The notes beneath the pieces were generated by a model, which did not search any database, was not told the DNA's origin, and was given only the letters and a program-made list of their open reading frames with translations. Below are positions 45,957 through 60,107 of a DNA stretch of 64,000 nt, piece by piece; the first letter of the stretch is position 1; each line of letters begins with the position of its first letter. Position numbers and translations under genes: made by a program. The stretch lies in the IMG/VR virus record IMGVR_UViG_3300025133_000023, one strand, 5' to 3'. The stretch is from a virus.

Positions 45957-46392
45957 TGGTTGTTCTATTCCTCCTAAAGGGACCTTAGTTAGGAACCATG
46001 GGTAGATTCTATCATAAGATAAGATTCATATAAAGAAAAGAGAATTGGGTGAAAACGAGAGAGAAAAGCTTAATGAAAGCCTAATAGGGAAGTGAAAAAT
46101 GAAAAAGAGTATGGGAGTAGAGTTAAGTAAGGTTAGCTAAGCTAGGGTTGTCGGTTTTTCAAAAAAAACTTATGAAGTTGAGGAATACCTAATGAAATTG
46201 AGAAAAGCCCTATGGGGAAAGAGAAAAGTAAAATAAAATATCGGGGAGGGAGGTATAGAGAGACTAGGACTGTAGGGGTCCCAGTTTTTCGGAGACCCCC
46301 GGGGTCCATATCTGGCATGTAGTCAGGTCTGGTAATCCTAGGCGTCTCACGGGCAACCCTGCCCACTCACACTCTTGAAGGGAGTGTTACAC
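45957..46392. promoter_or_regulatory. Divergent control region at the strand and composition switch
   Basis: 436-nt non-coding gap; purine-rich plus strand at 46020-46260; GGGGTC/GACCCC/GGGGTC inverted repeats at 46275-46306. Confidence 0.6.
46369..46387 (+). promoter_or_regulatory. Conserved hairpin, copy 1 (ACACTC-TTGAAGG-GAGTGT), overlapping the SD
   Basis: Covarying stem shared with 48325, 55908 and 61333. Confidence 0.7.
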
Positions 46393-48177
46393 ATGGCTAC
46401 CATCGATATGTTCCTGTTCGTCCTCTTCGCCATCTGCTTCGCCGCCCCCACCGTCGCCTGGATCTTCCTCATCGTCACCGAGCGGGCCTCGACCTGCTCG
46501 CCCCTCCAGGTCGCCGTGACCTTCACCCCGCCCCTCCCCAGGTACAACGAGGTGGACTACGAGGTGGTGGATGTGTCCCCCATGCCCACCACCTACTCGT
46601 CCATCCTCTTCGTGCGCACACACGTACTGGACCTGCGTCCTGATGGTGATGTCGTGCTCGATGGTGAGTGGAGCATGGTCAAGGCTGAGGACAAGCAGTC
46701 ATACACCATGCGTGCCCATGGTAGCGTGGTGCGCTACCGCTACCACCACAACACCAACTACTCCCGTGCTGTCAACACACGCAGCACCCTCAGCACCACG
46801 ATCACCGTGCATGAGGAGAGGGTCAAGGTGCCTGTGCCCACCCTCACCCCTGAGCCCACCTACCACTACATCCTGGTAGGCAGCACGGCAAGTGAGCAGG
46901 ACATGGTGGACTACGTGTCCGCCTTCGACCTCGTGCTGTATCAGGTCTACCCTGGCTACATCGGGAACACCACTGTATGGGACTTCACCTCCAAGGACGA
47001 CCCGTACACCATCCACAGCTGGGTGTTCCTCGACAATCCCGAGCTGGTCATGGAGACAGAGGAGGAGATGTGGGAGCGCAAGGCTTCCCGTGTCCGTCCC
47101 TCTGCTGCCCTGGGTGTGCGTGGTAGCCACACCAAGGGGTGGAAGCACGACCGCGTGGCCCGACAGCGGTGCGTCTACAAGCACAGCATGGTGATGGACA
47201 AGCAGTGGGGTCACACCACCTACATGCCCACTGATGAGGATGTGCGTGCATGGCAGGCTGATGAGGATGTGCACGTGAGCACCCGCACGGTGCAGTCGAA
47301 CAAGCCCTCTCCTCGCAAGCCCCGGCAGAAGTACAAGGGCAAGGTTGTGCAGGCTGACATCCTCAACGCCGACTACCTCACCGACGCGGTCTGGGAAGCG
47401 AGGGAAGTCAGCAACGACCAGTGGAAGGCTGGTTGGTGCAAGTGGGACGAGATCGACATCGACCTCGAATGGGTCGATATGTCGAACGCCATCGACGCCG
47501 AGGAGCTGCTCCACCAGGGAGAGTGGCCCTTCGAGTTCCTCTGCGACATCTGTGGCAGCAACGCCTGCAGCTGCGAGGAGGACGACGACGGCGAGCACTG
47601 CTGTGGGTATGGTGAGTGCGACTGCGACTTCGGGGATGAGCGGTGCAGCCGATGCAGGCAGTGGTACGCCACGTGCTCGTGTGGTGGCTCGCTGGTCTCC
47701 GAGACCTGGGCCGAGTACGCCAAGAGGGAGGCCTACCTCGACACCGTGGTCGAAGGCAAGACCAACCGTGAATGGGAAGACATCCATAGCTCCCTCAAGG
47801 AGACGGATGAAGGTCCCGGCCAGCAGGCTGACGAGGACTTCAAGCCCGACATGGACGTGCTCTGGGCCAACGTGGTCAAGTCCTTCGAGCTGTTGGGGCA
47901 GTGGCCGTTCGAGTTCCGCTGTGACACCTGTGGGAGCAACGCCTGCTCCTGCGAAGAGGACAAGGCCATCAACGACCAGGAGGAGTACGACAAGGCCAAC
48001 AACCTGTGCCTGAACTGTCACCAGAACCCCTGTTGCTTCGACTGCGTCTACGATGACGATCCGCAGCAGGAAGAGGACGACTTCGGGGCAGAGGCCGAGG
48101 TCGCCAAGCGTAAAGAGGCCAAGACGGACTGGTCCAAGGTCACGATGGAAGACCCCTTTTCCATCACAGACTTCTAG
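46393..48177 (+). CDS. Acidic Cys-rich protein with N-terminal membrane anchor and a duplicated Cys module
   Basis: ATG 46393 after the SD; WPFEFxCDxCGSNACSCEED occurs twice (47524-47580, 47902-47958). Confidence 0.8.
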   Translation: MATIDMFLFVLFAICFAAPTVAWIFLIVTERASTCSPLQVAVTFTPPLPRYNEVDYEVVDVSPMPTTYSSILFVRTHVLDLRPDGDVVLDGEWSMVKAEDKQSYTMRAHGSVVRYRYHHNTNYSRAVNTRSTLSTTITVHEERVKVPVPTLTPEPTYHYILVGSTASEQDMVDYVSAFDLVLYQVYPGYIGNTTVWDFTSKDDPYTIHSWVFLDNPELVMETEEEMWERKASRVRPSAALGVRGSHTKGWKHDRVARQRCVYKHSMVMDKQWGHTTYMPTDEDVRAWQADEDVHVSTRTVQSNKPSPRKPRQKYKGKVVQADILNADYLTDAVWEAREVSNDQWKAGWCKWDEIDIDLEWVDMSNAIDAEELLHQGEWPFEFLCDICGSNACSCEEDDDGEHCCGYGECDCDFGDERCSRCRQWYATCSCGGSLVSETWAEYAKREAYLDTVVEGKTNREWEDIHSSLKETDEGPGQQADEDFKPDMDVLWANVVKSFELLGQWPFEFRCDTCGSNACSCEEDKAINDQEEYDKANNLCLNCHQNPCCFDCVYDDDPQQEEDDFGAEAEVAKRKEAKTDWSKVTMEDPFSITDF

Positions 48178-48210
48178 GCCCTACACCTAGTCGTCGCTCC
48201 CTTCAGGCCA

Positions 48211-48343
48211 CATCCATCCCAATGGGGTGGATGCTGCGCCTTAGTACCAGTGGTGTCCCAGATGGGGCATTACTGTTACTAAGATGCGGTATCCGACCGC
48301 TAGGGGTAATCATACCCCACCTTTGCACTCTTGAAAGGAGTGT
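48211..48343 (+). ncRNA. Structured leader with five consecutive hairpins, ending in conserved hairpin copy 2
   Basis: Stems at 48211-48233, 48241-48282, 48286-48300, 48303-48318 and 48325-48343; several G-U pairs. Confidence 0.55.
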
Positions 48344-48348
48344 TAGTT

Positions 48349-49008
48349 ATGTTGCTGTTGCTGGCCATTTTGGCCATGGTGTCCCTCGCCACCCTCGTCC
48401 GTCTCCAGATCCGGACGGCGTCGAAGAACCGTTTCACCCTCATCGAGGAGATGATCATCATGGGCCCCATGTGGTTCGTGCTGCTCCCGATCATGTCCTG
48501 GATGTTCCCCGACATCTGGGTGGGAGTGATCGGCCACTTCTTCATGAGCTGGGGGTACGTGTACAACACCGTGCTCACGGGGGTGCTGTGTGTGTCGATC
48601 GGATTGAGTCTGGATCGTCCGACTTATCTCTGGGACAAGCCAACGGCTGTCCTGAGTTCCGTCATCCTCCTGGCCTTCGGCCTGGGCATGATGTGGGACC
48701 GCATCCCCTACGTCCAGTGGGACAGCAACGTGCACCAGTTCCTGAAGGACACCTTCGTCCAGTGGATGAACACCTGTGGCCATGCCATGCTCATCCTCGT
48801 GTGGTTCCGGGCCGCTCGGTACTGGGACTGCACCATGGGTCGGGCCTTCATGAACAGCCTCATGTGCAGTGCCAAGGCCATGCGTCTCACGGTCAGGGTG
48901 CTGAAGCGTGACGGTACCTCGACATGGTCGGCGTTCTGGATCATTGCGATCCTCGCCTTCGCCTTCGGGCACAACGTCGTCGTCCTCTTCAACACAATCG
49001 GATACTAA
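48349..49008 (+). CDS. Multi-pass membrane protein
   Basis: About 6 hydrophobic segments; GC3-rich codons. Confidence 0.75.
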   Translation: MLLLLAILAMVSLATLVRLQIRTASKNRFTLIEEMIIMGPMWFVLLPIMSWMFPDIWVGVIGHFFMSWGYVYNTVLTGVLCVSIGLSLDRPTYLWDKPTAVLSSVILLAFGLGMMWDRIPYVQWDSNVHQFLKDTFVQWMNTCGHAMLILVWFRAARYWDCTMGRAFMNSLMCSAKAMRLTVRVLKRDGTSTWSAFWIIAILAFAFGHNVVVLFNTIGY

Positions 49009-49018
49009 GGAGTAGACA

Positions 49019-49111
49019 ATGCTCATCGATGACGACCTGGGCCTCGCCCTCCACCTGTTCATCAACGAGATGAACCTCAAGATCCTGTTGGGCTACATGA
49101 GCCTCAACTAA
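49019..49111 (+). CDS. Small ORF, 30 aa (MLIDDDLGLALHLF...)
   Basis: SD AAGGAG; same codon style as neighbours. Confidence 0.5.
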   Translation: MLIDDDLGLALHLFINEMNLKILLGYMSLN

Positions 49112-49118
49112 CCTTCTT

Positions 49119-49239
49119 CCCAGGGCTGCGTCTGGAGAAACAACGCAGTAACACCCCATCCAGGGTCACAAGGCCTGGAGCCACAATCTCGTGGTAGCTG
49201 TGGAGTGAGTCGATAAAGGGTAACCAATCCCTGTAGGAG
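49119..49239 (+). ncRNA. Structured element, copy 1 (H-type pseudoknot ... TAACCAAT-loop hairpin)
   Basis: Shares CCCAGGGCTGCGTCTGG, CAACGCAG, ACAAGGCC and GGGTAACCAATCCC with copy 2. Confidence 0.6.
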
Positions 49240-49247
49240 TGCTAGAC

Positions 49248-49532
49248 ATGACCAAGCCTTTCCGTTCTCACTTCTGCCCTCGCTGCCGGCACAAGGGCAG
49301 CACTCAGGTGGACAACATGCGCTGCGACGTCTACCTTTGCGGAGGGCCCCATCAGCGGCAGGAGATCTGGGGAGAGGTCCACGAGTGGCCGTCCCAGAAA
49401 ATCATCGTCCGCCACGGGCGATTCGTTAAGGGTGAGCAGCTCGGTGAGGGCGTGGTCTGGGAGGACCAGATCCTCAACGGCACCACCACCATCGTCAAGG
49501 CCGCGAAGGCCATCCTCAACAAGGAGTCCTAG
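49248..49532 (+). CDS. Hypothetical protein with CPRC motif
   Basis: SD TAGGAG; ORF track. Confidence 0.65.
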   Translation: MTKPFRSHFCPRCRHKGSTQVDNMRCDVYLCGGPHQRQEIWGEVHEWPSQKIIVRHGRFVKGEQLGEGVVWEDQILNGTTTIVKAAKAILNKES

Positions 49533-49533
49533 A

Positions 49534-49698
49534 ATGAAGATCAAGCTTGCCGCAATCATCGAGTTCCTCTACATGGCCCAGCGTGACGGCTGGACCCTGG
49601 ACTTCATCCTGCAGCAGTTGCACTTCGTGCACTCGGGTACGCGGGACGAACGCCTGCACGACAACATGATCGTGCTCATCGAGGCCATTGAGGACTAA
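49534..49698 (+). CDS. Small hypothetical protein, 54 aa
   Basis: ATG after TAGA; SD AAGGAG. Confidence 0.6.
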   Translation: MKIKLAAIIEFLYMAQRDGWTLDFILQQLHFVHSGTRDERLHDNMIVLIEAIED

Positions 49699-49706
49699 CC
49701 AACCTC

Positions 49707-49841
49707 ACCCAGGGCTGCGTCTGGGTTATCAACGCAGGAGCTACAAGGCCACTCGTTCTTGAGTGGTGGGGTGCGAAGGCCTAGGCCCCCGTAAGCAAAG
49801 TAGAGGCATCAACAAGGGGTAACCAATCCCCAAGCTAGGAG
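49707..49841 (+). ncRNA. Structured element, copy 2
   Basis: ACCCAG/CTGGGT and CTGCGT/ACGCAG interleaved stems; GGGG-TAACCAAT-CCCC hairpin. Confidence 0.6.
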
Positions 49842-49849
49842 ATAGTCAG

Positions 49850-50242
49850 ATGACCACGCTCGAATTCGCCACCCGTTTCCCCATGTTCCTCATCCTCCTC
49901 CCCACCCTCATCAGCATGGCGCTCCTCATCTACTGCAGCTGGGAGGATGAGATCGTCGCGGTCTACGACTTCGTCACCATGGGCATCAGCTCCTACCTGC
50001 AGCGCCGCACCGCCATCGTGCTGGAAGAGATGGTCGAAGAGGAGGAGAAGGAGGAGTTCATCTTCCCCGAGGGCATCGACTGGGACGGCGTCGAAGACAT
50101 CACCGAAGATGAGGTCTTCGGCTACATGCCCATCCCGGCTTCTACCCCCGAGGGCCGGCGCCAGCACCAGGCGTTCATGCTGTCTGAAGCCCGCGTGGTG
50201 GGGCAGAACAACGATAACATCGACCGCTGCCCCCGCCGTTAG
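49850..50242 (+). CDS. Membrane-anchored acidic protein
   Basis: N-terminal TM segment; SD. Confidence 0.7.
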   Translation: MTTLEFATRFPMFLILLPTLISMALLIYCSWEDEIVAVYDFVTMGISSYLQRRTAIVLEEMVEEEEKEEFIFPEGIDWDGVEDITEDEVFGYMPIPASTPEGRRQHQAFMLSEARVVGQNNDNIDRCPRR

Positions 50243-50272
50243 TTGGTCTACTCCAACTTCCGTAAGGGGGTC

Positions 50273-50620
50273 ATGATCTGCCGTGAATGCGGTGGTGAGT
50301 GTCCCCTGGGGACGGACGACTACGACAGCGTCATCCACCAGGGTGACTGCTCTCGGCTTCGGGTCATCCGAATGCTGAGGCAGTTCCCCATCATCAGCGA
50401 TCTCGAGGTGCAGGCTCACACCTGCCACGTCGATGGTCGCATCATCGACCACGGGATCAGCCGCACTTGCCCTGCCTGGGGTAGGCTCATGCGGGTCATT
50501 TCCCGTAACCCTGTTCCTGGCTGTTTCTGCAGCAAGGAGCAGATCCTGAAGTGCTACAACAAGCACTTCGTCACCTACGAAGAGGACGTGCTCGCCGCGG
50601 CCTTCTTCATCGAAGACTAG
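50273..50620 (+). CDS. Cys/His-rich hypothetical protein
   Basis: CRECGGEC and other Cys pairs; ATG after AAGGGGG. Confidence 0.6.
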   Translation: MICRECGGECPLGTDDYDSVIHQGDCSRLRVIRMLRQFPIISDLEVQAHTCHVDGRIIDHGISRTCPAWGRLMRVISRNPVPGCFCSKEQILKCYNKHFVTYEEDVLAAAFFIED

Positions 50621-50648
50621 CCCATACAGGGCAGAAAGAGAGAAGCTA

Positions 50649-51275
50649 ATGTCTACCAACAACTACGTCAACCTCTTCATCCACGAGGAGACGGTCAAGC
50701 GCACCAAGGTGCTCAAGTACCGCTCCCGGGTGAAGAAGACCGACCGCCTCGGCCGCAGCTACTACAAGCTCGAGGTCACGATGACCAAGGAGATCAAGGT
50801 CAAGCGCCTGGTCTACCGCGATCAGCGCAACGGACGCTTCGCCAGCAAGGCTGCGTTCCTGGCCGAGCAGGAGGGTGAGGTCCTGCCCCAGGTGTGGCCG
50901 AGTAACCCCATGGGTGAGCTTCCTACGACCACGGTGATGAGCATGGAGGGCATCGACGCCGACTGGAAGGTCAAGAGCGAGCTGCTGGAGGCGGCCTACG
51001 ACAGCCAGGAGCTGGCCGAGTGGATGGAGGGCTTCGACGCCTCCCATCCCGTGGGGAGCAAGGCCGAGAAGCGGCTGCCGACGAGCGAGGCCCGCTACAA
51101 CGAGGTCATGGAGTGGCTGCAGTTCGAGCAGAGCTGGGACCACAGCATCCTCGTGGTGGTGGAAACGCCCGAGCCCCGCGTCCTCAACAACCTGGCCTTC
51201 CAGCAGGCCCGCGTCAAGCTGCTCGTCCGCAAGGGCATGAGCAAGGAAGACGCCTACAACGAGGTGATGGCATGA
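50649..51275 (+). CDS. Hypothetical protein, 208 aa
   Basis: High GC3; basic N-terminal half with RDQRNGRF. Confidence 0.75.
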   Translation: MSTNNYVNLFIHEETVKRTKVLKYRSRVKKTDRLGRSYYKLEVTMTKEIKVKRLVYRDQRNGRFASKAAFLAEQEGEVLPQVWPSNPMGELPTTTVMSMEGIDADWKVKSELLEAAYDSQELAEWMEGFDASHPVGSKAEKRLPTSEARYNEVMEWLQFEQSWDHSILVVVETPEPRVLNNLAFQQARVKLLVRKGMSKEDAYNEVMA

Positions 51276-51784
51276 TCAAGTCTCAGACAAACCCGTGGCT
51301 GCACTTTGGTCGGTGCGTGGACGCTCTTCGGAGTGCTCTGCCCATGGCCAAGTTCCTGTACGAGGGAGATCTCGTTCAGGACCACATGCACACCAACACC
51401 CCCACCCCCACCCTGTTCGTTCGACACGAGTGCGGACGGATCGTGGGCCACGTGCGCTACGACAAGAGCATGGTCTGCAGTCGACGGTACGTGTCCTACT
51501 ACACCCGTCTCAGCGGTGGCAAGGGTGGCGGCGGCGAGGTCACCATCGAGGAGCTCTTGCGGGCGTTCAAGGAGACGTACAAGGACAGCGAGCCGATTCC
51601 CTACCCGCCGAAGCCCCTGTGGCTGGCCGAGAAGAACTACCGCTGGTTCACGTTGCAGATGGCAGTGTCGGAAACGTTCTGGCACATCCTCGACCTCCGG
51701 TTGGATCGGCACAAGTCCGACCAGCGTGTGGGTACCATTCGTCCCGGTCGTGTCAGCGGCTGGGACATCAACTGGAGCCAGTAG
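51272..51784 (+). CDS. Hypothetical protein, 170 aa
   Basis: ATGA overlap with the upstream stop. Confidence 0.65.
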   Translation: MIKSQTNPWLHFGRCVDALRSALPMAKFLYEGDLVQDHMHTNTPTPTLFVRHECGRIVGHVRYDKSMVCSRRYVSYYTRLSGGKGGGGEVTIEELLRAFKETYKDSEPIPYPPKPLWLAEKNYRWFTLQMAVSETFWHILDLRLDRHKSDQRVGTIRPGRVSGWDINWSQ

Positions 51785-51785
51785 C

Positions 51786-51941
51786 ATGGACTTCCCCAAG
51801 ACCAAGGGCGCCACCTACGTCAACCTCCTGAACATTCTGGACCAGCTCCGGTTCCAGAAGTTCATCAATCAGAATCGCTGTGAGGACTGGGTCGTCGAGA
51901 TCTGCTCCTACATGGCACCCATCAACAAGCAGGAGAACTAG
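51786..51941 (+). CDS. Small hypothetical protein, 51 aa
   Basis: TAG-C-ATG junction. Confidence 0.6.
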   Translation: MDFPKTKGATYVNLLNILDQLRFQKFINQNRCEDWVVEICSYMAPINKQEN

Positions 51942-51943
51942 CC

Positions 51944-52126
51944 ATGTTCGAGACCCTTTTCTCTTCCCTGTCCCTTCAGGTGGAACTGGACGGCTTCAAC
52001 AATGCGCTCAAGGCGCTCCAGGCCGAGTACACCGAAGAAATGGACCAGGTCGTCTGGGACTGGTCCTGGGAGCTCGAAGACGACCACATCGCATACGCCA
52101 ACACCCTCACCCCGGCTGTTGCCTAG
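51944..52126 (+). CDS. Small acidic protein, 60 aa
   Basis: SD CAGGAG; ORF track. Confidence 0.65.
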   Translation: MFETLFSSLSLQVELDGFNNALKALQAEYTEEMDQVVWDWSWELEDDHIAYANTLTPAVA

Positions 52127-52177
52127 CTAGACTCAACTCATCCACGCCAGGAATGGCGAGATCAAGGAGAAGAAGTA

Positions 52178-52789
52178 ATGCCCGTTTTCGACCCCAACAA
52201 CCCCAATGATAAGGTGGCCCTGGCCGCCTTCAGCAGCAACCACTTCTACGCCGACACCCGCAACCCGCTCCTCAAGGAGGACAACACCATGACCAGCAAG
52301 CTCAAGAACATCGCCACCCTCGCCCTCATCATCTTCTGCCTGGGGGCGGTGCTGTTCCTCACCATCCGCGCCGTCAGCGTGCTCAGCAACCCCACGAGCA
52401 ACGGCATCATCACCATCCCGTCCTGGGGTGAGGGCGTCCTCCTCTGCGGGGACAAGCACAACAAGGTGACCGAGGGGGACAACCACTACTGGAACGACGT
52501 CTACGGTGCCTGGACGGTCAACGCCGGCCACATGGACGACATCGAGCTGGACGAGCTCAAGTATGTGGCCACCTTCACCTGCCCCTACAACACCAAGGGC
52601 ATCCGGGGCATCGCCACGCACGACCACTTCTTCACCAACGACGGAAAGGAGATCAAGTTCCACGCCGTTCAGATCGTGGAAGAGGGTGTCGACATCAGCA
52701 ACGGTGGACTCAAGACCGCCGACGCTGAGCTGGAGCAGCACATGCGCTACGTGTGTGACCATGACTTCAACGCCATCCTGAGGAAGTAG
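52178..52789 (+). CDS. Membrane-anchored or exported protein; possible second start at 52289
   Basis: Hydrophobic segment after internal AAGGAGG-N8-ATG. Confidence 0.75.
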   Translation: MPVFDPNNPNDKVALAAFSSNHFYADTRNPLLKEDNTMTSKLKNIATLALIIFCLGAVLFLTIRAVSVLSNPTSNGIITIPSWGEGVLLCGDKHNKVTEGDNHYWNDVYGAWTVNAGHMDDIELDELKYVATFTCPYNTKGIRGIATHDHFFTNDGKEIKFHAVQIVEEGVDISNGGLKTADAELEQHMRYVCDHDFNAILRK

Positions 52790-52826
52790 TCGCTAGAAAC
52801 ACCCCAAACTTGAACTGATCGCACTT

Positions 52827-52860
52827 ACTGCTCATGGCCTAATTCTGGGTCATGGGCAGT
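52827..52860 (+). promoter_or_regulatory. 15-bp RNA hairpin with 3 G-U pairs
   Basis: ACTGCTCATGGCCTA-ATTC-TGGGTCATGGGCAGT; no U-tract. Confidence 0.6.
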
Positions 52861-52895
52861 GGGGGTTATTAGTTCAACTGCTCATAGGAGATAGA

Positions 52896-53033
52896 ATGAA
52901 AAGCTGCTTTTCCATCCTTGCCCCCCTGGCGATCATCGCCCTCATCTTTTTCATGGGCCTCACCAAGGCCTTCGTCATCTTCATCATGATCATGATCGTC
53001 GGGGGATTCACCCTCGGCCTGCTGGGAGAATAA
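52896..53033 (+). CDS. Small hydrophobic protein, 45 aa
   Basis: SD TAGGAG; two TM-like segments. Confidence 0.6.
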   Translation: MKSCFSILAPLAIIALIFFMGLTKAFVIFIMIMIVGGFTLGLLGE

Positions 53034-53039
53034 AAATAA

Positions 53040-53405
53040 ATGTCTAGCCTGTTCACCGTTCCCGCCACCAAGTACCTCACCGTTCAGTTCTTCATGGGGA
53101 AGCGCGACGACCGCACGTTCTCGGTGTGGTGCAAGACCAACATGGGCTTCAAGCCCGACGAGCCCCACGAGTGGTACTACGACGTCAAGCTCGGTGAGCC
53201 CGGGGAGCTGATGGTCTCCGTGCCCAAGAGCCACAGCAGCGAGAACTGGTTGCGGTGGGGGGATCGCGGTACCGAGATCGACATCAAGGACGCCTACGAC
53301 TTCCTGGCCCAGCTGGAGAAGGAGCAGTCGCACCGTGGCGACATCAAGCTGACCGTCAACATGCCCCCGTCCGAGTTCAACATCAACTTCGTGGAGGCCA
53401 AGTAG
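53040..53405 (+). CDS. Hypothetical protein, 121 aa
   Basis: ORF track; codon style. Confidence 0.7.
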   Translation: MSSLFTVPATKYLTVQFFMGKRDDRTFSVWCKTNMGFKPDEPHEWYYDVKLGEPGELMVSVPKSHSSENWLRWGDRGTEIDIKDAYDFLAQLEKEQSHRGDIKLTVNMPPSEFNINFVEAK

Positions 53406-53407
53406 TC

Positions 53408-53638
53408 ATGAACAACAACATCGCGCTCATCGTGCTCGGCTGCCTCTGCCTCGGGTGGGTCCAGTTCGCTACCGTCCTCATCGCCTATAGTGCCACTCAG
53501 GCCAAGAGCAAGCCCCTCGGGGTGATGTCGGTGCTGTGCTGGCTCATCCTCGCCTTCCTCTGCTCGGTCATCGTCATCGACCAGTTCATCCTCCTCCCCT
53601 GGTTGGAGGAGACCAACTTCCACGTCTGCGGCAAGTAG
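53408..53638 (+). CDS. Small membrane protein, 76 aa
   Basis: TAGTCATG junction; two TM segments. Confidence 0.65.
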   Translation: MNNNIALIVLGCLCLGWVQFATVLIAYSATQAKSKPLGVMSVLCWLILAFLCSVIVIDQFILLPWLEETNFHVCGK

Positions 53639-53663
53639 CCCGTAGAAGAAAGGAGAATGCTAG

Positions 53664-54068
53664 ATGTCTGAGAAAATCAAGTGGCGGTTCCAGTTCCGTA
53701 CGGGACTGGACAAGCAGTGCAGCTGGACCAACCCCGACGAGATGTATCCACATTTCGATCGAGAGATGATCACCGAAAACATGATCACGGGATTCATGTC
53801 CAAGTACCTTTGGGGACCGAACAAGAAGACGGTCCTCGAAGTTCATGACGAGCACAAGGGTGACAAGCACCTGCAGGACGTGACCGCTGCCAACACCTAC
53901 TGGGTGTGGCGCACCGGCTTCACGATCTACGTGTGCCACGGTGTCCACTTCAAAACCAACAACATCGAGCCCAAGAAGATCGGAGCCCACAAGTGTCACA
54001 TCTCGGAAGAGGTGATCGACACGGTGTGGGAGCTCATGTTCGAGGGTGCGGCTGAGGAGAACGGTTAG
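53664..54068 (+). CDS. Hypothetical protein, 134 aa
   Basis: SD AAGGAG. Confidence 0.7.
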   Translation: MSEKIKWRFQFRTGLDKQCSWTNPDEMYPHFDREMITENMITGFMSKYLWGPNKKTVLEVHDEHKGDKHLQDVTAANTYWVWRTGFTIYVCHGVHFKTNNIEPKKIGAHKCHISEEVIDTVWELMFEGAAEENG

Positions 54069-54254
54069 ATGGCCAAGAAGAAGTTTGAGAGGAACAACAG
54101 TCTCGGGGGACGAACCGCCTCGCGGGTGAACAAGCTGATCTCGCAGCGACGGCAGGTCGCTCTTGACAACCGGTGGGATCGCGGACCTCGCGTGACCACT
54201 ACCAACCGTAACAAGGACTGGAAGCGCATCAGCATCCAGTCCGAGGAGAGCTAG
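54069..54254 (+). CDS. Small basic protein, 61 aa
   Basis: TAG-ATG abutment. Confidence 0.6.
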   Translation: MAKKKFERNNSLGGRTASRVNKLISQRRQVALDNRWDRGPRVTTTNRNKDWKRISIQSEES

Positions 54255-54256
54255 TC

Positions 54257-55105
54257 ATGTTCGGAATAGCACAGCAGTTCAGCGAAGAGGGCCTGACCAA
54301 GAAGGTGCTGGAGCGCGTCTTCTTCCTGGCCTTCGGCGTCTGGGCCATGTTCTTCATCATGGACCACATGGCGAGCACGTGGGCGACTGTCATCGCCTCT
54401 CTCCTGGCGGTGGGTACGGCTCTCAGCAGCTCCCTGCCGCGTTGGGCGTTGCTCTGGTACGAGCGTCGCCACTTCCTGATCGAAATCACCTTCGGGGGGG
54501 TGTCATGGCTCCTCAGCGGGGGAGCTGGCGGCATCGGACTCGTCAACTTCATGTTCGCGTCGACGGCGGCTGTGAGCTTCATCAAGATGCTCAACGCCCG
54601 CCGAGGCACACTCAAGGGAGAAACCTTCTACCAATACCTCCTCAAGAGCCGCTTCCACTGGCTCTTTGCCTACGGGTTCCGACCCATGGACAAGAACTGG
54701 CGATGGCCCTCGACCCGTGTCGAGGACGAGGATGGCGTACACTACGAGTTCGAGAAGGCGGGCTTCCTTGATTGGAAGTACCTGCTCGGGCACTGGCGGA
54801 ATCGATCGATCAAGGGCTACGACTACTGGGTCACGCCTGAAGTCCATCCCATGCCCCCGCTGTGGATGAAGTACGTCAACAGTAGCCAGTACTGGCTTGC
54901 TGTCGATGACCACAACGCTTCGATGGCTTCCAGCCAGCACATGACCCAGCTCGTGGGAGTGCGGAACGAGGCCGTCAAGAAGCTCGAAGAGCTGCTCTCC
55001 AACAAACCCTCCAACAAGAACCAGAACTCGGTGTGGATCGCACGGATGCATCGCCTCCAGATCCTCATCGACTCCCTCAACACCCAGATCGAAGGGATTA
55101 AGTAG
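54257..55105 (+). CDS. Membrane protein, 282 aa
   Basis: Four N-terminal TM-like segments; TAGTCATG junction. Confidence 0.75.
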   Translation: MFGIAQQFSEEGLTKKVLERVFFLAFGVWAMFFIMDHMASTWATVIASLLAVGTALSSSLPRWALLWYERRHFLIEITFGGVSWLLSGGAGGIGLVNFMFASTAAVSFIKMLNARRGTLKGETFYQYLLKSRFHWLFAYGFRPMDKNWRWPSTRVEDEDGVHYEFEKAGFLDWKYLLGHWRNRSIKGYDYWVTPEVHPMPPLWMKYVNSSQYWLAVDDHNASMASSQHMTQLVGVRNEAVKKLEELLSNKPSNKNQNSVWIARMHRLQILIDSLNTQIEGIK

Positions 55106-55107
55106 TA

Positions 55108-55584
55108 ATGAACATCGACAAGCCCAAGTGGGCGCAACTCCTTGACAGCGGAACGGATCTCCTCCTCCGTGGTGGAGACACCATCATGGACAACACCTTG
55201 GGGCGGCTGAAAGCTCCTCTGGCTGATGAGGAAAAGGCCCGCATCTACGTCGAGACCACGACCAATGTCCTCTCCCACACCACGGGAGCGGACCTCGGTG
55301 ACCAGGAGAAGCTGGCGAAGTTGGCAGCGATAGAGGACCAGCTTGCCCAGTATGGCGAGCTCAACCGTCAGCAGCGGAACAGTGTTGGGAAGCAGTTGCT
55401 CAAGGACATGAGCAACCCCGACACGTTCGTCGCGGAAGAAGAGAAGAAGGAAGTGGAAGAGCGTCCCGCGTGGCAGTGGGTGCTGTTCCTCATCGTTAAT
55501 TTGTTTATGCTCCTGTTCAACCGGGGACTCTACACCAACAAGGAGGTCGAGAACTACATCAACCAGAGCAAGGAGAAGAAGTGA
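55108..55584 (+). CDS. Hypothetical protein with C-terminal TM segment
   Basis: ORF track. Confidence 0.7.
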   Translation: MNIDKPKWAQLLDSGTDLLLRGGDTIMDNTLGRLKAPLADEEKARIYVETTTNVLSHTTGADLGDQEKLAKLAAIEDQLAQYGELNRQQRNSVGKQLLKDMSNPDTFVAEEEKKEVEERPAWQWVLFLIVNLFMLLFNRGLYTNKEVENYINQSKEKK

Positions 55585-55835
55585 TGCGTACCAGAATCCT
55601 CATGGTCGGTGAGATCGACGGCGACGGCATCCAGTTCCAGCTGGATGAAACCAAGAACACCTACATGTGGAAGGGTGAAGCCACCCTCGGCTACGGCATC
55701 CACCGCATCGTCCGCGACACGGACATGAACGAGGTGGAAACCCTCCACGATGTTCAGCAGTCCGTTGCTGGCGCCCTGTTCGAGTTCAACAAGCTGGCCG
55801 TCCTGATCAAGGCTGGTGCTTTCAAGTCCAACTAG
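55584..55835 (+). CDS. Hypothetical protein, 83 aa
   Basis: TGATG overlap; SD AAGGAG. Confidence 0.7.
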   Translation: MRTRILMVGEIDGDGIQFQLDETKNTYMWKGEATLGYGIHRIVRDTDMNEVETLHDVQQSVAGALFEFNKLAVLIKAGAFKSN

Positions 55836-55907
55836 AGGAGGCAGAGGAAATGTGCATTCGTGGTCCACCGTCCTTCTCTTCAACAGAGACGGACACCAAC
55901 AACATAC

Positions 55908-55922
55908 GCTCTTGAAAGGAGC
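55908..55922 (+). promoter_or_regulatory. Conserved hairpin, copy 3 (GCTC-TTGAAAG-GAGC)
   Basis: Same loop, compensatory stem change. Confidence 0.65.
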
Positions 55923-55928
55923 AATCTC

Positions 55929-56372
55929 ATGGAAGACATCCGCAACAAGTACTTCATCCTCGAAGACGATATGGGGAACCAGTACGTTGAGTACGCCACC
56001 TCCGACACCCAGGCCTTGGAGCAGGCAGAAGAAAAGTGGCCCACGGTCACCTTCGTCCGCATCACCTTCCACGGAACCAACCCCCCGCTCTGGTACAAGC
56101 AGAGCAACAAGGAGAACAAGATGAACACCAACACCCAGGCCGGATTCACTCTCATCGAGCTCATGATCGTCATCGTGATCATCAGCATCATCGGGGCCCT
56201 GGTCCTCTCCAACTTCGACATCATCGGCACCCTCCTCGGTGCCGTCACGTTCGTCGTGTTCGTGCTCGTGGGTTGCGCCATCAGCGCGGGCTACAGCTCG
56301 GTCAAGTCGATCAAGCAGAAGATGGACAACACGATGTCTTTCACCCCCAACAACAACAAGAAGGGAAACTAG
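55929..56372 (+). CDS. Protein with an internal type IV prepilin-like N-methylation motif (own SD and ATG at 56121)
   Basis: MNTNTQAG-FTLIELMIVIVIISIIGALVL. Confidence 0.8.
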   Translation: MEDIRNKYFILEDDMGNQYVEYATSDTQALEQAEEKWPTVTFVRITFHGTNPPLWYKQSNKENKMNTNTQAGFTLIELMIVIVIISIIGALVLSNFDIIGTLLGAVTFVVFVLVGCAISAGYSSVKSIKQKMDNTMSFTPNNNKKGN

Positions 56373-56374
56373 TC

Positions 56375-57790
56375 ATGGGTGCACACTGGCTCGGACAGAA
56401 CTACATCGCCTGCAAGGGTGACGGCACCACCACCGCCAAGGGTGGAATCGCATTGAGCCCGAAGGAGGTCACCTGCCGCCGATGCCGTCGGTGGATCGTG
56501 ACCCTCATGGGAGCGAAACGATTCGACCGAAACTGGACAACGGAAGACGTCCAGGCCGCTGAGATCAACAACAACCCGGAGAACACCGACATGCCCCCGA
56601 CCGACCCCACCACGCCCGCCGCCCCCAACGCCTACAACTGCGCCAACTGCAACAAGGAGCAGAAGCTGACGATCGTCACCGACCAGAAGGTCTTCTGCGA
56701 CGAGAAGTGCATGCTGGAATACGTGCAGGCGAGTGCCAAGGAGCAGGATGATATGGACAAGGAGATCGACGACCTGATCGCCAAGGAGCGGGAGATCAAC
56801 AGCCCCAAGGGCACCACCCCCAAGACGGAGAGCAAGACCATGCCCGACCCGACCCCCACCGCCCCGACCAACGACAACCCCAACAAGGATGACAAGACCA
56901 TGACCGACCCGACCCCCACCGCCCCGCCCCTGTTCACCTACGACCCCGAGAACAAGGAGACCGCGTTCCACTACCAGAACCTCCCCGCCGCCATGGCTGA
57001 CTGGAAGGAGGCGATCGTCTTCAGCTACATGGGCAAGGACGACAAGAAGGTCATCCGCCGCGAGGAGATGGAGGTCAAGGACCTGATGAACCTGTTCGAG
57101 ACCATCCTGAACAACCGCACGGACAAGTACGGCTTCAACCCCATCCACCAGTACGTCTCCCTGACCGGTGACGTCACGCGGATGTTCGTCTACGCCGTGG
57201 ACCGCAAGACGAAGAAGGCGACCCACACCCTGATCGAGCTCAAGCTCAAGGGCAAGGGCGACAAGGCCCGCGTGGTGGACACCTGCCACAGCAACCCCCG
57301 GGGCAAGGGCAACCACCCCAACATGGTCGCGCTCGGCGTGGCCTTCTCGGCCTTCAAGGCCAACACCAACGACAAGGAGAGTGACATGGAGAAGAAGAAC
57401 GTGTTCATCCGCATGGCGCACAGCGTCAAGGACATGGCCATCAAGTTCGGCAAGAAGATGATGGGCTGGGCCCGCAGCTTCATGGGCTGGAACATCGAGC
57501 AGCGCTACGCCATCCTGGGTTCCGTGAGCGCGATGTACGGCGGCATGTGGTTCTGGTACCTGATGGGTGGCGCGCTGCCCATCTACGTGTTCGGCGTGAG
57601 CAACATCCTCTGGGTCGCGACCTGCGTCGGCTTCCTGGCGTCTTACGCGATCCTGGCCTACCTCTCCTACGCGGCCATCTACGCCGTCGTCGCGGGACTC
57701 GTGGCTCTGAAGAACACCGTGGGTGAGTTCATGGCCCTGAGCGATGCGTCCGTCTCCCCCGAGATGACCACCGCTGCCGCCAACGCCTAG
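56375..57790 (+). CDS. Multidomain protein: Zn-finger-like motifs, Pro/Thr repeats, C-terminal TM segments
   Basis: CRRC; CANC...FCDEKC; KTM(P/T)DPTPTAP twice; near-saturated GC3. Confidence 0.8.
   Translation: MGAHWLGQNYIACKGDGTTTAKGGIALSPKEVTCRRCRRWIVTLMGAKRFDRNWTTEDVQAAEINNNPENTDMPPTDPTTPAAPNAYNCANCNKEQKLTIVTDQKVFCDEKCMLEYVQASAKEQDDMDKEIDDLIAKEREINSPKGTTPKTESKTMPDPTPTAPTNDNPNKDDKTMTDPTPTAPPLFTYDPENKETAFHYQNLPAAMADWKEAIVFSYMGKDDKKVIRREEMEVKDLMNLFETILNNRTDKYGFNPIHQYVSLTGDVTRMFVYAVDRKTKKATHTLIELKLKGKGDKARVVDTCHSNPRGKGNHPNMVALGVAFSAFKANTNDKESDMEKKNVFIRMAHSVKDMAIKFGKKMMGWARSFMGWNIEQRYAILGSVSAMYGGMWFWYLMGGALPIYVFGVSNILWVATCVGFLASYAILAYLSYAAIYAVVAGLVALKNTVGEFMALSDASVSPEMTTAAANA
56833..56926 (+). 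repeat. 34-nt direct repeat (1 mismatch), 60-nt period
   Basis: CAAGACCATG(C/A)CCGACCCGACCCCCACCGCCCCG at 56833 and 56893. Confidence 0.85.
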
Positions 57791-57875
57791 TCTGGCAACC
57801 AACAACCCATAGCTGAAGTCTAACCCAGGGGAATGGCACGTGGACCCATACTAACCGTGCCCAAAAGGAGAACAC

Positions 57876-58382
57876 ATGTTCAACTGGTTGTGGAGCAAGA
57901 TCAAGGCTCCCTTTGAGACAGTTCCCGAGACCTTCGAGGTTCGGGATAGCGAGAACAACGCCATCGTGGCATACCAGCGGCCTGAGGAGATGGCCATCAA
58001 GCGGTGGGTGGCTGGAGCAGGCTACTCGATCCGTGAAGACATCGAAGAGGCCGTGGAGCTGGGGCAGGCGAGCACGCCCATGATCGGACTCGCCGTCCTC
58101 TACATCGGGATCATGTGGATCGGCTTGCTGGTCAGTGTGATCTTCGGCATGGCCCTGAAGGGAGCTGGTCTCCTGGCGATCTTGGTAGTGGTGTGGAAGA
58201 TCACCTACGTCATGGTCGTCGCCACCCTGTTCCTCGTCAGCATCTACGGGGCGTTCCTCGGACTCGCTCTCGTGATCGCGAAGCGGGGATGGAAGCTGTT
58301 CAACCGCTACATCCGGCGTGAGCCGATGTCGTGGAAGGATGCCTTCCAGCGTACCGTGGGCCGATTCGTCTACGCCAACTAA
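57876..58382 (+). CDS. Membrane protein, 168 aa
   Basis: SD AAAGGAG; hydrophobic C-terminal half. Confidence 0.75.
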   Translation: MFNWLWSKIKAPFETVPETFEVRDSENNAIVAYQRPEEMAIKRWVAGAGYSIREDIEEAVELGQASTPMIGLAVLYIGIMWIGLLVSVIFGMALKGAGLLAILVVVWKITYVMVVATLFLVSIYGAFLGLALVIAKRGWKLFNRYIRREPMSWKDAFQRTVGRFVYAN

Positions 58383-58513
58383 CCCATAGCTAGGAGAACA
58401 ACATGAACCCGATTAGGGCTCCTTGAGACTAACTGTTAACCTCGACCATGGGCGTATGTCGTTAAAGATCGCCCACCTTCGAGACAATCAACGTTACACG
58501 GAGATAGAGAACA

Positions 58514-59179
58514 ATGGCTACCAAGAGCAACGACCGCACCGGCCTCAACCGTCACCCCTTCAGCGATACGGGCGTCCACCCGTGGCGTTACCTGAACGTT
58601 CACATCAGCAAGATGCCGAAGCCCGTCCCGATGGTGGACTTCGAGCGGCTCGCTGAAACGGAGGGCGTCAGCCCCACCTTCATCGGCTACATCCGCAGCC
58701 ACGAGGGTGACTTCCTGGGTGATGATGGCATCGCGTGGACCGGCAACTACCGTGGGCTGAACGGGTTCCTGACGAAGGCTCTGTTCGAGCGGATCGATGG
58801 CATCCGCGAGATCATCGTCAAGAAGTCCTTCCTCGTGAAGGCCGACAAGACGATCAAGGGTGGGCACATGCCCACCTCCAAGTACAGCGAGAGCCTGTAC
58901 TGCCACCTCGTCATCGGTCCCGTCAAGGGCGAGAACCTGCAGCCGGACACGTCGTACGTCCAGAAGGGAGACAAGTACTACAAGGTGGTGGAGCTGAAGG
59001 GCTTCAACATCGTGGACGTGAACGACAACAGCTACGGGCTGCCCAAGCCCTGCGAGCACCCCGACGCCCCCAAGATCCGCAAGTGGGTCCAGGGGCTCTA
59101 CGCGGCTCACGCGGCGAAGATGGCCAAGGCCAAGGCCAAGGCGGCTGACGTCGACACGACCGAGGACAACCCGCTCTAG
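58514..59179 (+). CDS. Hypothetical soluble protein, 221 aa
   Basis: Strong codon bias; KAKAKA tail. Confidence 0.75.
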   Translation: MATKSNDRTGLNRHPFSDTGVHPWRYLNVHISKMPKPVPMVDFERLAETEGVSPTFIGYIRSHEGDFLGDDGIAWTGNYRGLNGFLTKALFERIDGIREIIVKKSFLVKADKTIKGGHMPTSKYSESLYCHLVIGPVKGENLQPDTSYVQKGDKYYKVVELKGFNIVDVNDNSYGLPKPCEHPDAPKIRKWVQGLYAAHAAKMAKAKAKAADVDTTEDNPL

Positions 59180-59193
59180 GTCAACAGAGCGAT

Positions 59194-59227
59194 CAGGGTG
59201 GGGGCTCTTAATTGAGCCCTCGCCCTG
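59194..59227 (+). promoter_or_regulatory. 14-bp RNA hairpin with 2 G-U pairs
   Basis: CAGGGTGGGGGCTC-TTAATT-GAGCCCTCGCCCTG; no U-tract. Confidence 0.6.
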
Positions 59228-59251
59228 GGTGGGAGAAAGGAGGTAGCAACA

Positions 59252-59464
59252 ATGGCCGCATTTGATGACTCTTCGTATCGCCGTGCTGCTTACAATGCGT
59301 TCTGCCCCCTGTGCTACACAAGGGTCAGAAAGAATGATCTCATCTGTCCACCCTACGGTGGTGGTAAGTGGGCACACTACTCGTGTGCGTTTGAGGTCAA
59401 TCATGGACGACCGCCCCAGCCCCCCCGGAGGGAGAAAGAAGAAAACCATGACCAAACTGAGTAA
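59252..59464 (+). CDS. Small Zn-binding protein (CPLC...WAHYSC)
   Basis: SD AAGGAGGT. Confidence 0.55.
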   Translation: MAAFDDSSYRRAAYNAFCPLCYTRVRKNDLICPPYGGGKWAHYSCAFEVNHGRPPQPPRREKEENHDQTE

Positions 59465-59609
59465 TCTACTCGAAACCTCAATCCCACCCCCGGAGGGGAA
59501 TCAAACCCTCCCCGGAGGGGAGTACAACCAGAACAACAACAACCATTCCTACTACTACTCTACTACTACTATAACCACAACTAACAATACCCTTAGAAAG
59601 GGAAAACAA

Positions 59610-60107
59610 ATGAGCGTTTTCGCAACCATGACTGCATGTGCAGTCGGTACCACTGTCACTGTCGGTCTGATTAAGACCGTCAAGGACCTCATCGTCCACC
59701 GCAAGGACCGCAAGCACGAGGCCTGGACCTGGAAGAAGAAGCTGAAGAGCTTCGCCTGGAGCTTGGCGTCCCTGCCTCTCACCGTTCTCAGCACGCCCTG
59801 GGAGGTCTTCATCAACGACCTGGGCTGGGGCCACACCTACAGGGGTGTGTGGTACCATCGTGTCCTGGCTGCTGCTCTCGTGGGCATCATTGCCTTCTTC
59901 AAGCCCCTGTGCTTGGCGACGGCTTTGATGTTCTACGGCTGCACCGGCCTTTACACGTGGTTCAAGGAGTGGGAGAACGACTACCACAACTCCTACCGTA
60001 GGGTCGTTAGTGAGTTCAGCAAGGCTGAGCCTGCTGCCACGCCCAAGCCGTCCGGCATCCACCACGAGTGGAAGGTCGTCCCCCCGGAGGGAGCTGGTGC
60101 CGAGTAG
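59610..60107 (+). CDS. Membrane protein (the frame is also open from ATG 59448)
   Basis: AAAGGGA SD-like site before 59610; the upstream in-frame part is low-complexity N/Y/T. Confidence 0.7.
   Translation: MSVFATMTACAVGTTVTVGLIKTVKDLIVHRKDRKHEAWTWKKKLKSFAWSLASLPLTVLSTPWEVFINDLGWGHTYRGVWYHRVLAAALVGIIAFFKPLCLATALMFYGCTGLYTWFKEWENDYHNSYRRVVSEFSKAEPAATPKPSGIHHEWKVVPPEGAGAE

Follow-up and report, generated by a model that had tools for sequence, protein, structure and literature searches.

A compact RNA pseudoknot at gene and tRNA boundaries of unrelated phages

A compact pseudoknot of approximately 33 nt, found in 18 independent groups of phage contigs (GC 31–64%), is an uncatalogued and widespread phage RNA motif. 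We analysed a window of 64,000 nt (IMG/VR record IMGVR_UViG_3300025133_000023), in which a first-pass annotation had pointed to two copies of an intergenic RNA element, each starting with an H-type pseudoknot, and every sequence detail listed there could be read directly in the window. It is almost certain that a real, conserved RNA pseudoknot heads each of the two copies, and homologues and covariation make it more than a chance fold. As for function, the best supported reading is that the knot is a robust boundary element, punctuating polycistronic phage RNA as a barrier to nucleases or ribosomes, because it is located at cistron and tRNA boundaries, occurs in several copies and has no shared neighbouring partner that we could find; we regard this reading as plausible, if somewhat short of probable.

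The source of the window is an uncultured marine jumbo phage of approximately 190 kb, near-identical copies of which are present in Logan, JGI and ENA assemblies, including a contig of 189,622 bp, and for which the cultured-phage collection held no DNA match to the window. The virion genes lie on the minus strand (~47% GC) and encode a TerL and a major head protein that match PHROGs, as well as a portal ~40% identical to the portals of Bacillus phage 0305phi8-36 relatives. The early arm lies on the plus strand from 46393 onward, and the change from ~47% GC in the virion arm to 58–63% in the early arm is an abrupt step at the divergent intergenic region (45957–46392 / 46393–60107). The small early-arm proteins tested had no Pfam or PHROG match and are all ORFans. 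Early-arm proteins used as search anchors gave no usable relatives, and viral-contig searches with the portal and a 594-aa protein were likewise fruitless; the protein anchors failed because the proteins beside the cassettes are ORFans.

Each pseudoknot heads a plus-strand cassette which fills the entire gap between two ORFs. Cassette copy 1 (49112–49247) separates a 30-aa ORF (49019–49111) from a 94-aa zinc-ribbon-like gene (49248–49532), and copy 2 (49699–49849) separates a 54-aa ORF (49534–49698) from a 130-aa membrane-like ORFan (49850–50242). In the knot of copy 1 (49119–49148), which follows a TAA at 49109–49111, stem S1 pairs (C)CCAG (49119–49123) with CTGG(A) (CTGG at 49132–49135), L1 is GG (49124–49125), S2 pairs CUGCG (49126–49130) with CGCAG (49144–49148), the junction base is U (49131) and L3, (A)GAAACA-A, extends to 49143. 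The knot of copy 2 (49707–49737), which follows a TAA at 49696–49698, has a 6-bp S1 of ACCCAG (49707–49712) and CUGGGU (49721–49726), L1 GG, an S2 of CUGCG (49715–49719) and CGCAG (49733–49737), junction U and the L3 UAUCA-A. The reading frame of these conserved letters relative to the upstream stop differs between the copies, and therefore the constraint acts on nucleotides and not on coding.

At its other end each cassette carries a terminal hairpin, A-GGG UAACCAAU CCC-U in copy 1 (49217–49232) and GGGG UAACCAAU CCCC in copy 2 (49816–49831), followed by the SD sequence TAGGAG (49234–49239 and 49836–49841) and by the ATG (49248 and 49850). These hairpins, the CCAC..GTGG hairpins, ACAAGGCC and TAGGAG are all present as first described. 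Conservation between the cassettes is limited to their two ends, the pseudoknot block on one side and TAGGAG with its GGG-UAACCAAU-CCC hairpin on the other; the middles differ and have in common only ACAAGGCC and a differently placed CCAC/GUGG hairpin. Within the window, the exact blocks CCAGGGCTGCGTCTGG (two occurrences) and GGGTAACCAATCCC (two occurrences, zero mismatches) are confined to the two cassettes. The whole leader, composed of the knot, variable hairpins, the hairpin with the 8-nt loop and the SD, is duplicated in the window phage and now stands before two unrelated early genes. Plain MFE folding of the cassettes, which is blind to pseudoknots, was no better than that of shuffles (z −0.24 and 0.16), and a promoter and terminator scan found nothing inside either cassette.

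The proposal that the whole constitutes a single unit of 120–135 nt did not survive comparison, as the 33-nt pseudoknot is all that it shares with other phages, the terminal hairpin is separate and the middles differ between the copies. Similarly, a degenerate third start had been suspected near 57823, where CCCAGGGG is indeed present, but without S2 and without a model match. We also considered a mobile DNA insert with a TAACC target-site duplication, and dropped this reading because no more than 33 nt are common to other genomes and the hairpin is an independent motif. On the plus strand, the short sequence (C)TAACC(AA) occurs at 49108, 49695, 57820, 57851, 58379, 61121, 61180 and 61247; it is concentrated in early-arm intergenic DNA, where, or at stop codons, five of the six plus-strand TAACCAA sites of the window lie. 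Separately, a 15-mer of cassette copy 2, CTAACCAACCTCACC, recurs at ~61121.

Compared with the window, a variant contig shows 20 differences over 786 positions, one of which is in the cassette (49136 A>G, present also in a second contig) and converts a C.A mismatch in S1 of copy 1 to a C-G pair, giving this stem 5 bp plus a possible U.G pair. The Cys-rich 94-aa gene behind copy 1 (49248–49532) carries 18 of the 20 differences, clustered and mostly amino-acid changing, and is hypervariable in the phage population while its flanks are identical.

Relatives of the knot were sought by pattern scans and covariance models. The first scans, for exact 14- and 16-mers, returned mostly chance matches, and a very loose pseudoknot descriptor returned only noise. 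A pattern with fixed stem letters led to a phage tRNA-array contig, L143 (and L151, a second assembly of the same sequence), in which S1 reads GCCAG/CUGGC and the knot lies 3 nt before tRNA-Val. The same pattern, run on 185,579 species genomes, led to C16 (L287), a 27.8-kb contig of a MAG labelled Woesearchaeota. Four knot copies lie in consecutive gaps of the ORFan arm of C16, and none elsewhere in the 1.7-Mb bin; its genes for TerL, a portal and a major head protein identify the contig as that of a phage. In its copy B the S2 stem is GUGCG/CGCAC in place of CUGCG/CGCAG, and its copy C lacks S1. BLASTP found no protein in common between the window, C16 and L143, and their structural genes belong to different PHROGs. 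A relaxed pattern, AGGGNTGCGNCTG-N7-AACGCA, gave 52 IMG/VR loci with GC contents of 36–64%, where approximately 10 matches to its 17 specified bases were estimated to be expected by chance. One member is in a cultured phage, Corynebacterium phage PSonyx, where a copy that lacks annotation lies between genes 128 and 129 (~OR521085.1:67953–67990), and matches in Microbacterium phages were judged to be non-members. Several groups have ACCA after the knot, which is absent from the window copies. A tRNA-like reading of the element was not adopted; a weak tRNA-Asn called by ARAGORN overlaps copy A of C16, where Rfam finds no tRNA. An 11-mer common to C16 and one hairpin family, ATGGTTGACTG, was judged to be possibly a chance match.

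The resulting alignment, A5, holds 49 distinct 38-nt sequences without gaps, both window copies included. On the mRNA strand, the consensus is a compact H-type knot, laid out as 5 bp, 2 nt, 5 bp, an extruded junction base, 5 bp, a 6-nt A-rich loop and 5 bp: S1 is 5 bp ending in ..AG/CU.., with an optional sixth pair, L1 is GG, S2 is NUGCG/CGCAN', its 5' strand is followed by one to three unpaired junction bases, and the A-rich loop N-A-W-M-A-A passes across S1. Once the knotted pairs are spelled out, paired cells amount to 92% across the 49 sequences. The first-pass annotation had asked for covariation among homologues, and this proved strong: the score over both stems is 0.270, against 0.075 ± 0.012 in shuffles, none of the 500 of which reached it, while slid partners gave at most 0.076. 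The S1 pair of columns 7 and 22 is GC in 26 sequences and CG in 20, that of columns 6 and 23 is CG in 23, AU in 11, GC in 5 and UG in 3, and the outer pair of S2 is GC in 32, CG in 8 and AU in 6. The base after the 5' strand of S2 can be any of the four letters, opposite a would-be partner A that is invariant, and this junction base is therefore unpaired. Because the search patterns prescribed the letters AG/CU, GG, UGCG and AACGCA, the invariance of these is only partly observed; L1 GG was nevertheless constant in all seven sequences recovered without fixing L1. Model R2 found copies with junctions of 1–3 nt and loops of 6–15 nt, as well as one copy in which the inner S2 changed to GUGUG/CACAC, breaking the 'invariant' letters in a compensated way. 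Copy 1 scores 61.3 bits with model R1 and 43.6 bits with R2, and copy 2 scores 55.1 and 45.4 bits, respectively.

The same pairs bear on whether the site is read as DNA, that is, as an operator, recombination or nuclease site formed by the inverted repeat CTGCG-N11-CGCAG. The repeat is perfect and its 11-nt spacing is fixed, which would fit such a site; yet its orientation follows the genes strictly, G.U pairs occur among the members, and the covariation of S1 crosses the inverted repeat, which would be meaningless in duplex DNA, making this the least credible of the readings we weighed.

No family of Rfam 15 matched the knot in the window (49000–49900) or in its homologues, with gathering and E-value thresholds up to E≤10, and the core sequences were not found in any paper of the library searched, in agreement with the initial description of an unannotated structured RNA. 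The reported lack of a match to hammerhead, twister, pistol and HDV cores is borne out by the Rfam models and extends to twister-sister and hatchet. A ribozyme, a riboswitch or a processing element had been suggested, and these results speak against the first two, as there is no known core, no expression platform and no coherent set of genes, and leave processing as the most plausible of the three, in the form of a boundary or barrier element.

Self-cleavage, which would cut polycistronic RNA or tRNA precursors, has a precedent in the theta ribozymes, since small ribozymes are common in phages, multi-copy and tRNA-associated (PMC10879173); it would also fit the spread of the motif, given that no partner is needed, and the presence of knots 3–5 nt before tRNAs. 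We consider it improbable. With 33 nt and two helices the knot is smaller than any known natural self-cleaver and has no Rfam ribozyme match. HDV-like and theta ribozymes are nested double pseudoknots with P3/L3, P1.1 and a catalytic C in J4/2, and in theta ribozymes the tRNA is immediately upstream of the cleavage site (PMC10879173), whereas in the phage knot the 5' strand of S2 runs straight into the 3' strand of S1, leaving no room for an HDV-type P3, L3 or P1.1, and the tRNAs are downstream, at a varying distance from the knot to their 5' end.

A riboswitch aptamer as small as those of the preQ1-I class, with a universal metabolite as ligand, would account for a size and topology like those of the smallest known aptamers, and for the conserved unpaired junction bases and the A-rich loop. 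Indeed, preQ1-I (RF00522) is also an H-type knot, of ~34 nt, whose 3' loop is rich in A and occupies the minor groove of its first stem. The phage knot has other conserved letters, however, and did not match this model at E≤10 in 49000–49900 or in the other members, nor did it match any other Rfam riboswitch at that threshold. The fold contains neither a terminator nor an SD and is not linked to queuosine genes; downstream lie unrelated genes (ORFans, DUF932, ERF, helicases, tRNAs), and one operon can hold several copies. A riboswitch is therefore unlikely in our view.

The knot and the genes beside it always share a strand. At the 17 sites where the last 16 nt before S1 include the end of an ORF of 30 aa or more, the stop codon, TAA in 12 cases, lies 6–12 nt before S1 in 15, the remaining two being at 2 and 15 nt. 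At other sites a hairpin stands between stop and knot, and many copies are ~50 nt from a stop or in ORF-less tRNA arrays. Downstream, the next start codon is in many cases 11–32 nt away, the SD abuts the knot in L306, and a tRNA gene begins 3–5 nt after the knot in L143, L323 and L346. Early or replication genes surround the knot, among them DUF932, ERF and helicase genes and others that only a sequence pattern marks as encoding ParB-like and HNH proteins, and in L301 (2023–3227) a DUF932 gene is bracketed by two knot copies; DUF932 genes are found just upstream of the knot also in the largest phage group. Copies can be clustered, with four in ~520 nt in L310 and three in L336. In such arrays, 3–4 knots are spaced ~100–250 nt apart with no obvious ORF (L310 3200–3820, L336 990–1260, L316 8745–8824), and each knot is preceded by a small hairpin ending at S1. 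In the window the knots are 100–113 nt from the next start, and therefore cannot act directly on that ribosome-binding site.

A pseudoknot shortly after a stop codon has the geometry of viral recoding signals, and with the knot at the ribosome entry channel readthrough or frameshifting could take place at the upstream ORF; its architecture is that of the luteovirus frameshifting knot. The luteovirid −1 frameshifting knots of the BWYV/PEMV type have a 5-bp S1, a 2-nt L1, an extruded junction base and a 6–7-nt A-rich loop (AACAA-like) in the minor groove of S1, an architecture that the phage knot shares almost entirely and, like them, with no further spacer. The two differ in that the phage S2 has 5 bp instead of 3, in sequence, in the prokaryotic hosts of the phage knot, in the placement of some of its copies before tRNA genes, and in that the phage knot lacks both a slippery heptamer (X XXY YYZ, 5–9 nt upstream and in frame) and an overlapping −1 ORF. 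Reading on past the stop gives only short, unconserved extensions in frames 0, +1 and −1, the frame relative to the knot varies between copies, and the copies far from a stop or within tRNA arrays also count against recoding, which we judge very improbable.

Luteovirus-type triplex pseudoknots are known for their mechanical strength. If the phage knot acts as a boundary element, it would be a mechanically robust structure placed directly after stop codons and just before ribosome-binding sites or tRNAs, which would stop or slow enzymes that thread RNA, be they 5'–3' or 3'–5' exonucleases or ribosomes arriving from the upstream cistron. In this way the knot would determine where mRNA and tRNA segments end and how long they last, and would keep the translation of adjacent genes separate. 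REP/BIME elements of bacteria are likewise multi-copy, orientation-specific and located right after stop codons, where they shield the upstream mRNA and can stall terminating ribosomes; REPs, however, are plain hairpins and species-specific, whereas the phage element is a pseudoknot common to phages of many hosts. The leader knot of gene 32 in T4 and T2, a cis-regulatory and stabilising 5' element, resembles the phage knot in that it is a compact H-type fold which lacks L2 and precedes a ribosome-binding site in the leader of a phage mRNA, but it is tied to one gene and to that gene's own protein, while the phage knot has unrelated downstream genes, multiple copies and a sequence common to unrelated phages.

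A further parallel is with small knot-like RNAs of plant and fungal RNA viruses, coremin and xrRNA-C, which were shown by experiment to stall the exonuclease Xrn1 and scanning ribosomes and to promote frameshifting, and which also lie between genes (PMC10520033, PMC10321173). Like the phage knot they are tiny and intergenic and have an A-rich spacer, and a second hairpin often follows directly, as it does in C16 (PMC10520033, PMC10321173). The letters that define coremin, a GUC/GAC stem closed by YGAD and the spacer GUUAAACUAC (PMC10520033), are absent from alignment A5, and the two are alike in kind and not in sequence; moreover, the pseudoknot of coremin is only hypothesised, and coremin acts on the eukaryotic Xrn1. 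Several points count against a barrier, the distance of the window knots from the next start among them. Known −1 frameshifting pseudoknots did not stall Xrn1 (PMC10321173); the sets of exonucleases differ among hosts; and a mechanical barrier alone leaves the near-invariant L1 GG and inner S2 letters across unrelated phages only partly explained, although base triples could lie behind the remaining invariance.

This invariance is what a trans-acting factor would account for. The knot would then be an operator for a conserved host component (ribosomal protein S1, the 30S subunit, or RNA polymerase, as in put-type antitermination) or for a common phage RNA-binding protein, which would read the invariant GG/UGCG/AACGCA face and regulate the translation or transcription of early operons. 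Conserved letters in L1, in S2 and at the last bases of the loop across unrelated phages, multiple copies along early operons, a knot that abuts the SD in several phages (L306 among them) and pyrimidine-rich CCUCC flanks that could pair with the SD are all in line with such an operator. Against it, much of the letter invariance was imposed by the search patterns, some copies stand before tRNA genes without a ribosome-binding site, the hosts apparently range from SD-using to SD-less, and within about 7 kb of the knot there is no protein common to the 18 groups, nor any protein family common to more than four of them. We hold an operator to be a serious but rather doubtful alternative to the boundary element.

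More tentatively, the knot might represent the first counterpart in a prokaryotic virus of RNAs that resist exoribonucleases and ribosomes, a triplex knot of 33 nt that needs no partner and which, at cistron and tRNA boundaries, would program transcript ends, survival and translation. Structured RNAs of phages are poorly catalogued, and this one is tiny, sharply defined, strongly covarying, multi-copy and absent from Rfam 15, and the phages that carry it differ widely in host and GC content. If it does punctuate transcripts as a barrier, it would explain differential stability and independent translation in long early operons and tRNA arrays, and would provide a compact, portable part for synthetic operons. 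As one member is in the cultured phage PSonyx, with C. glutamicum as laboratory host, the question is directly testable.

The GGG-UAACCAAU-CCC hairpin is a motif separate from the pseudoknot. It recurs in many unrelated viral contigs (IMG/VR L015–L127) with covarying lower stems, and more than 113 contigs of IMG/VR contain the 14-mer GGGTAACCAATCCC. In 38% of 94 GGGTAACCAATCCC contexts the stem gains two or more pairs from its flanks, against 10% for a permuted-loop control. The hairpins are intergenic and co-oriented with genes, often just after major head or tail-tube genes and in some cases followed by T-runs, and are single-copy in the five records checked; in the window phage they lie 16–19 nt before start codons, without a T-run. 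A third copy in the window, without a pseudoknot and with a variant loop (GGGG UAAUCAUA CCCC, plus strand, 48303–48318), lies upstream of a 219-aa gene. Directly after it, at 48325–48343, is one of the SD-burying hairpins with a TTGAA(A/G)G loop which the first-pass annotation had listed in the window at 46369, 48325, 55908 and 61333. Four related contigs (L047, L051, L092 and L116) have in common, ~260 nt upstream of their GGGTAACCAATCCC hairpin, a long, highly structured and ORF-poor stretch that ends in the hairpin. This stretch matches nothing in Rfam and could belong to the larger non-coding RNAs.

In C16, other small hairpins directly follow the knots, several of them with a conserved GACCACG loop and covarying stems. 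Four hairpins of this type, on the minus strand of C16 (L291) at ~8195, 8790, 7799 and 6031, have the invariant 7-nt loop GACCACG on differing complementary stems of 3–5 bp, and two of them stand directly after knot copies. All four are in a 1.5-kb GC-rich island (50–64%) within a contig of ~35–40% GC.
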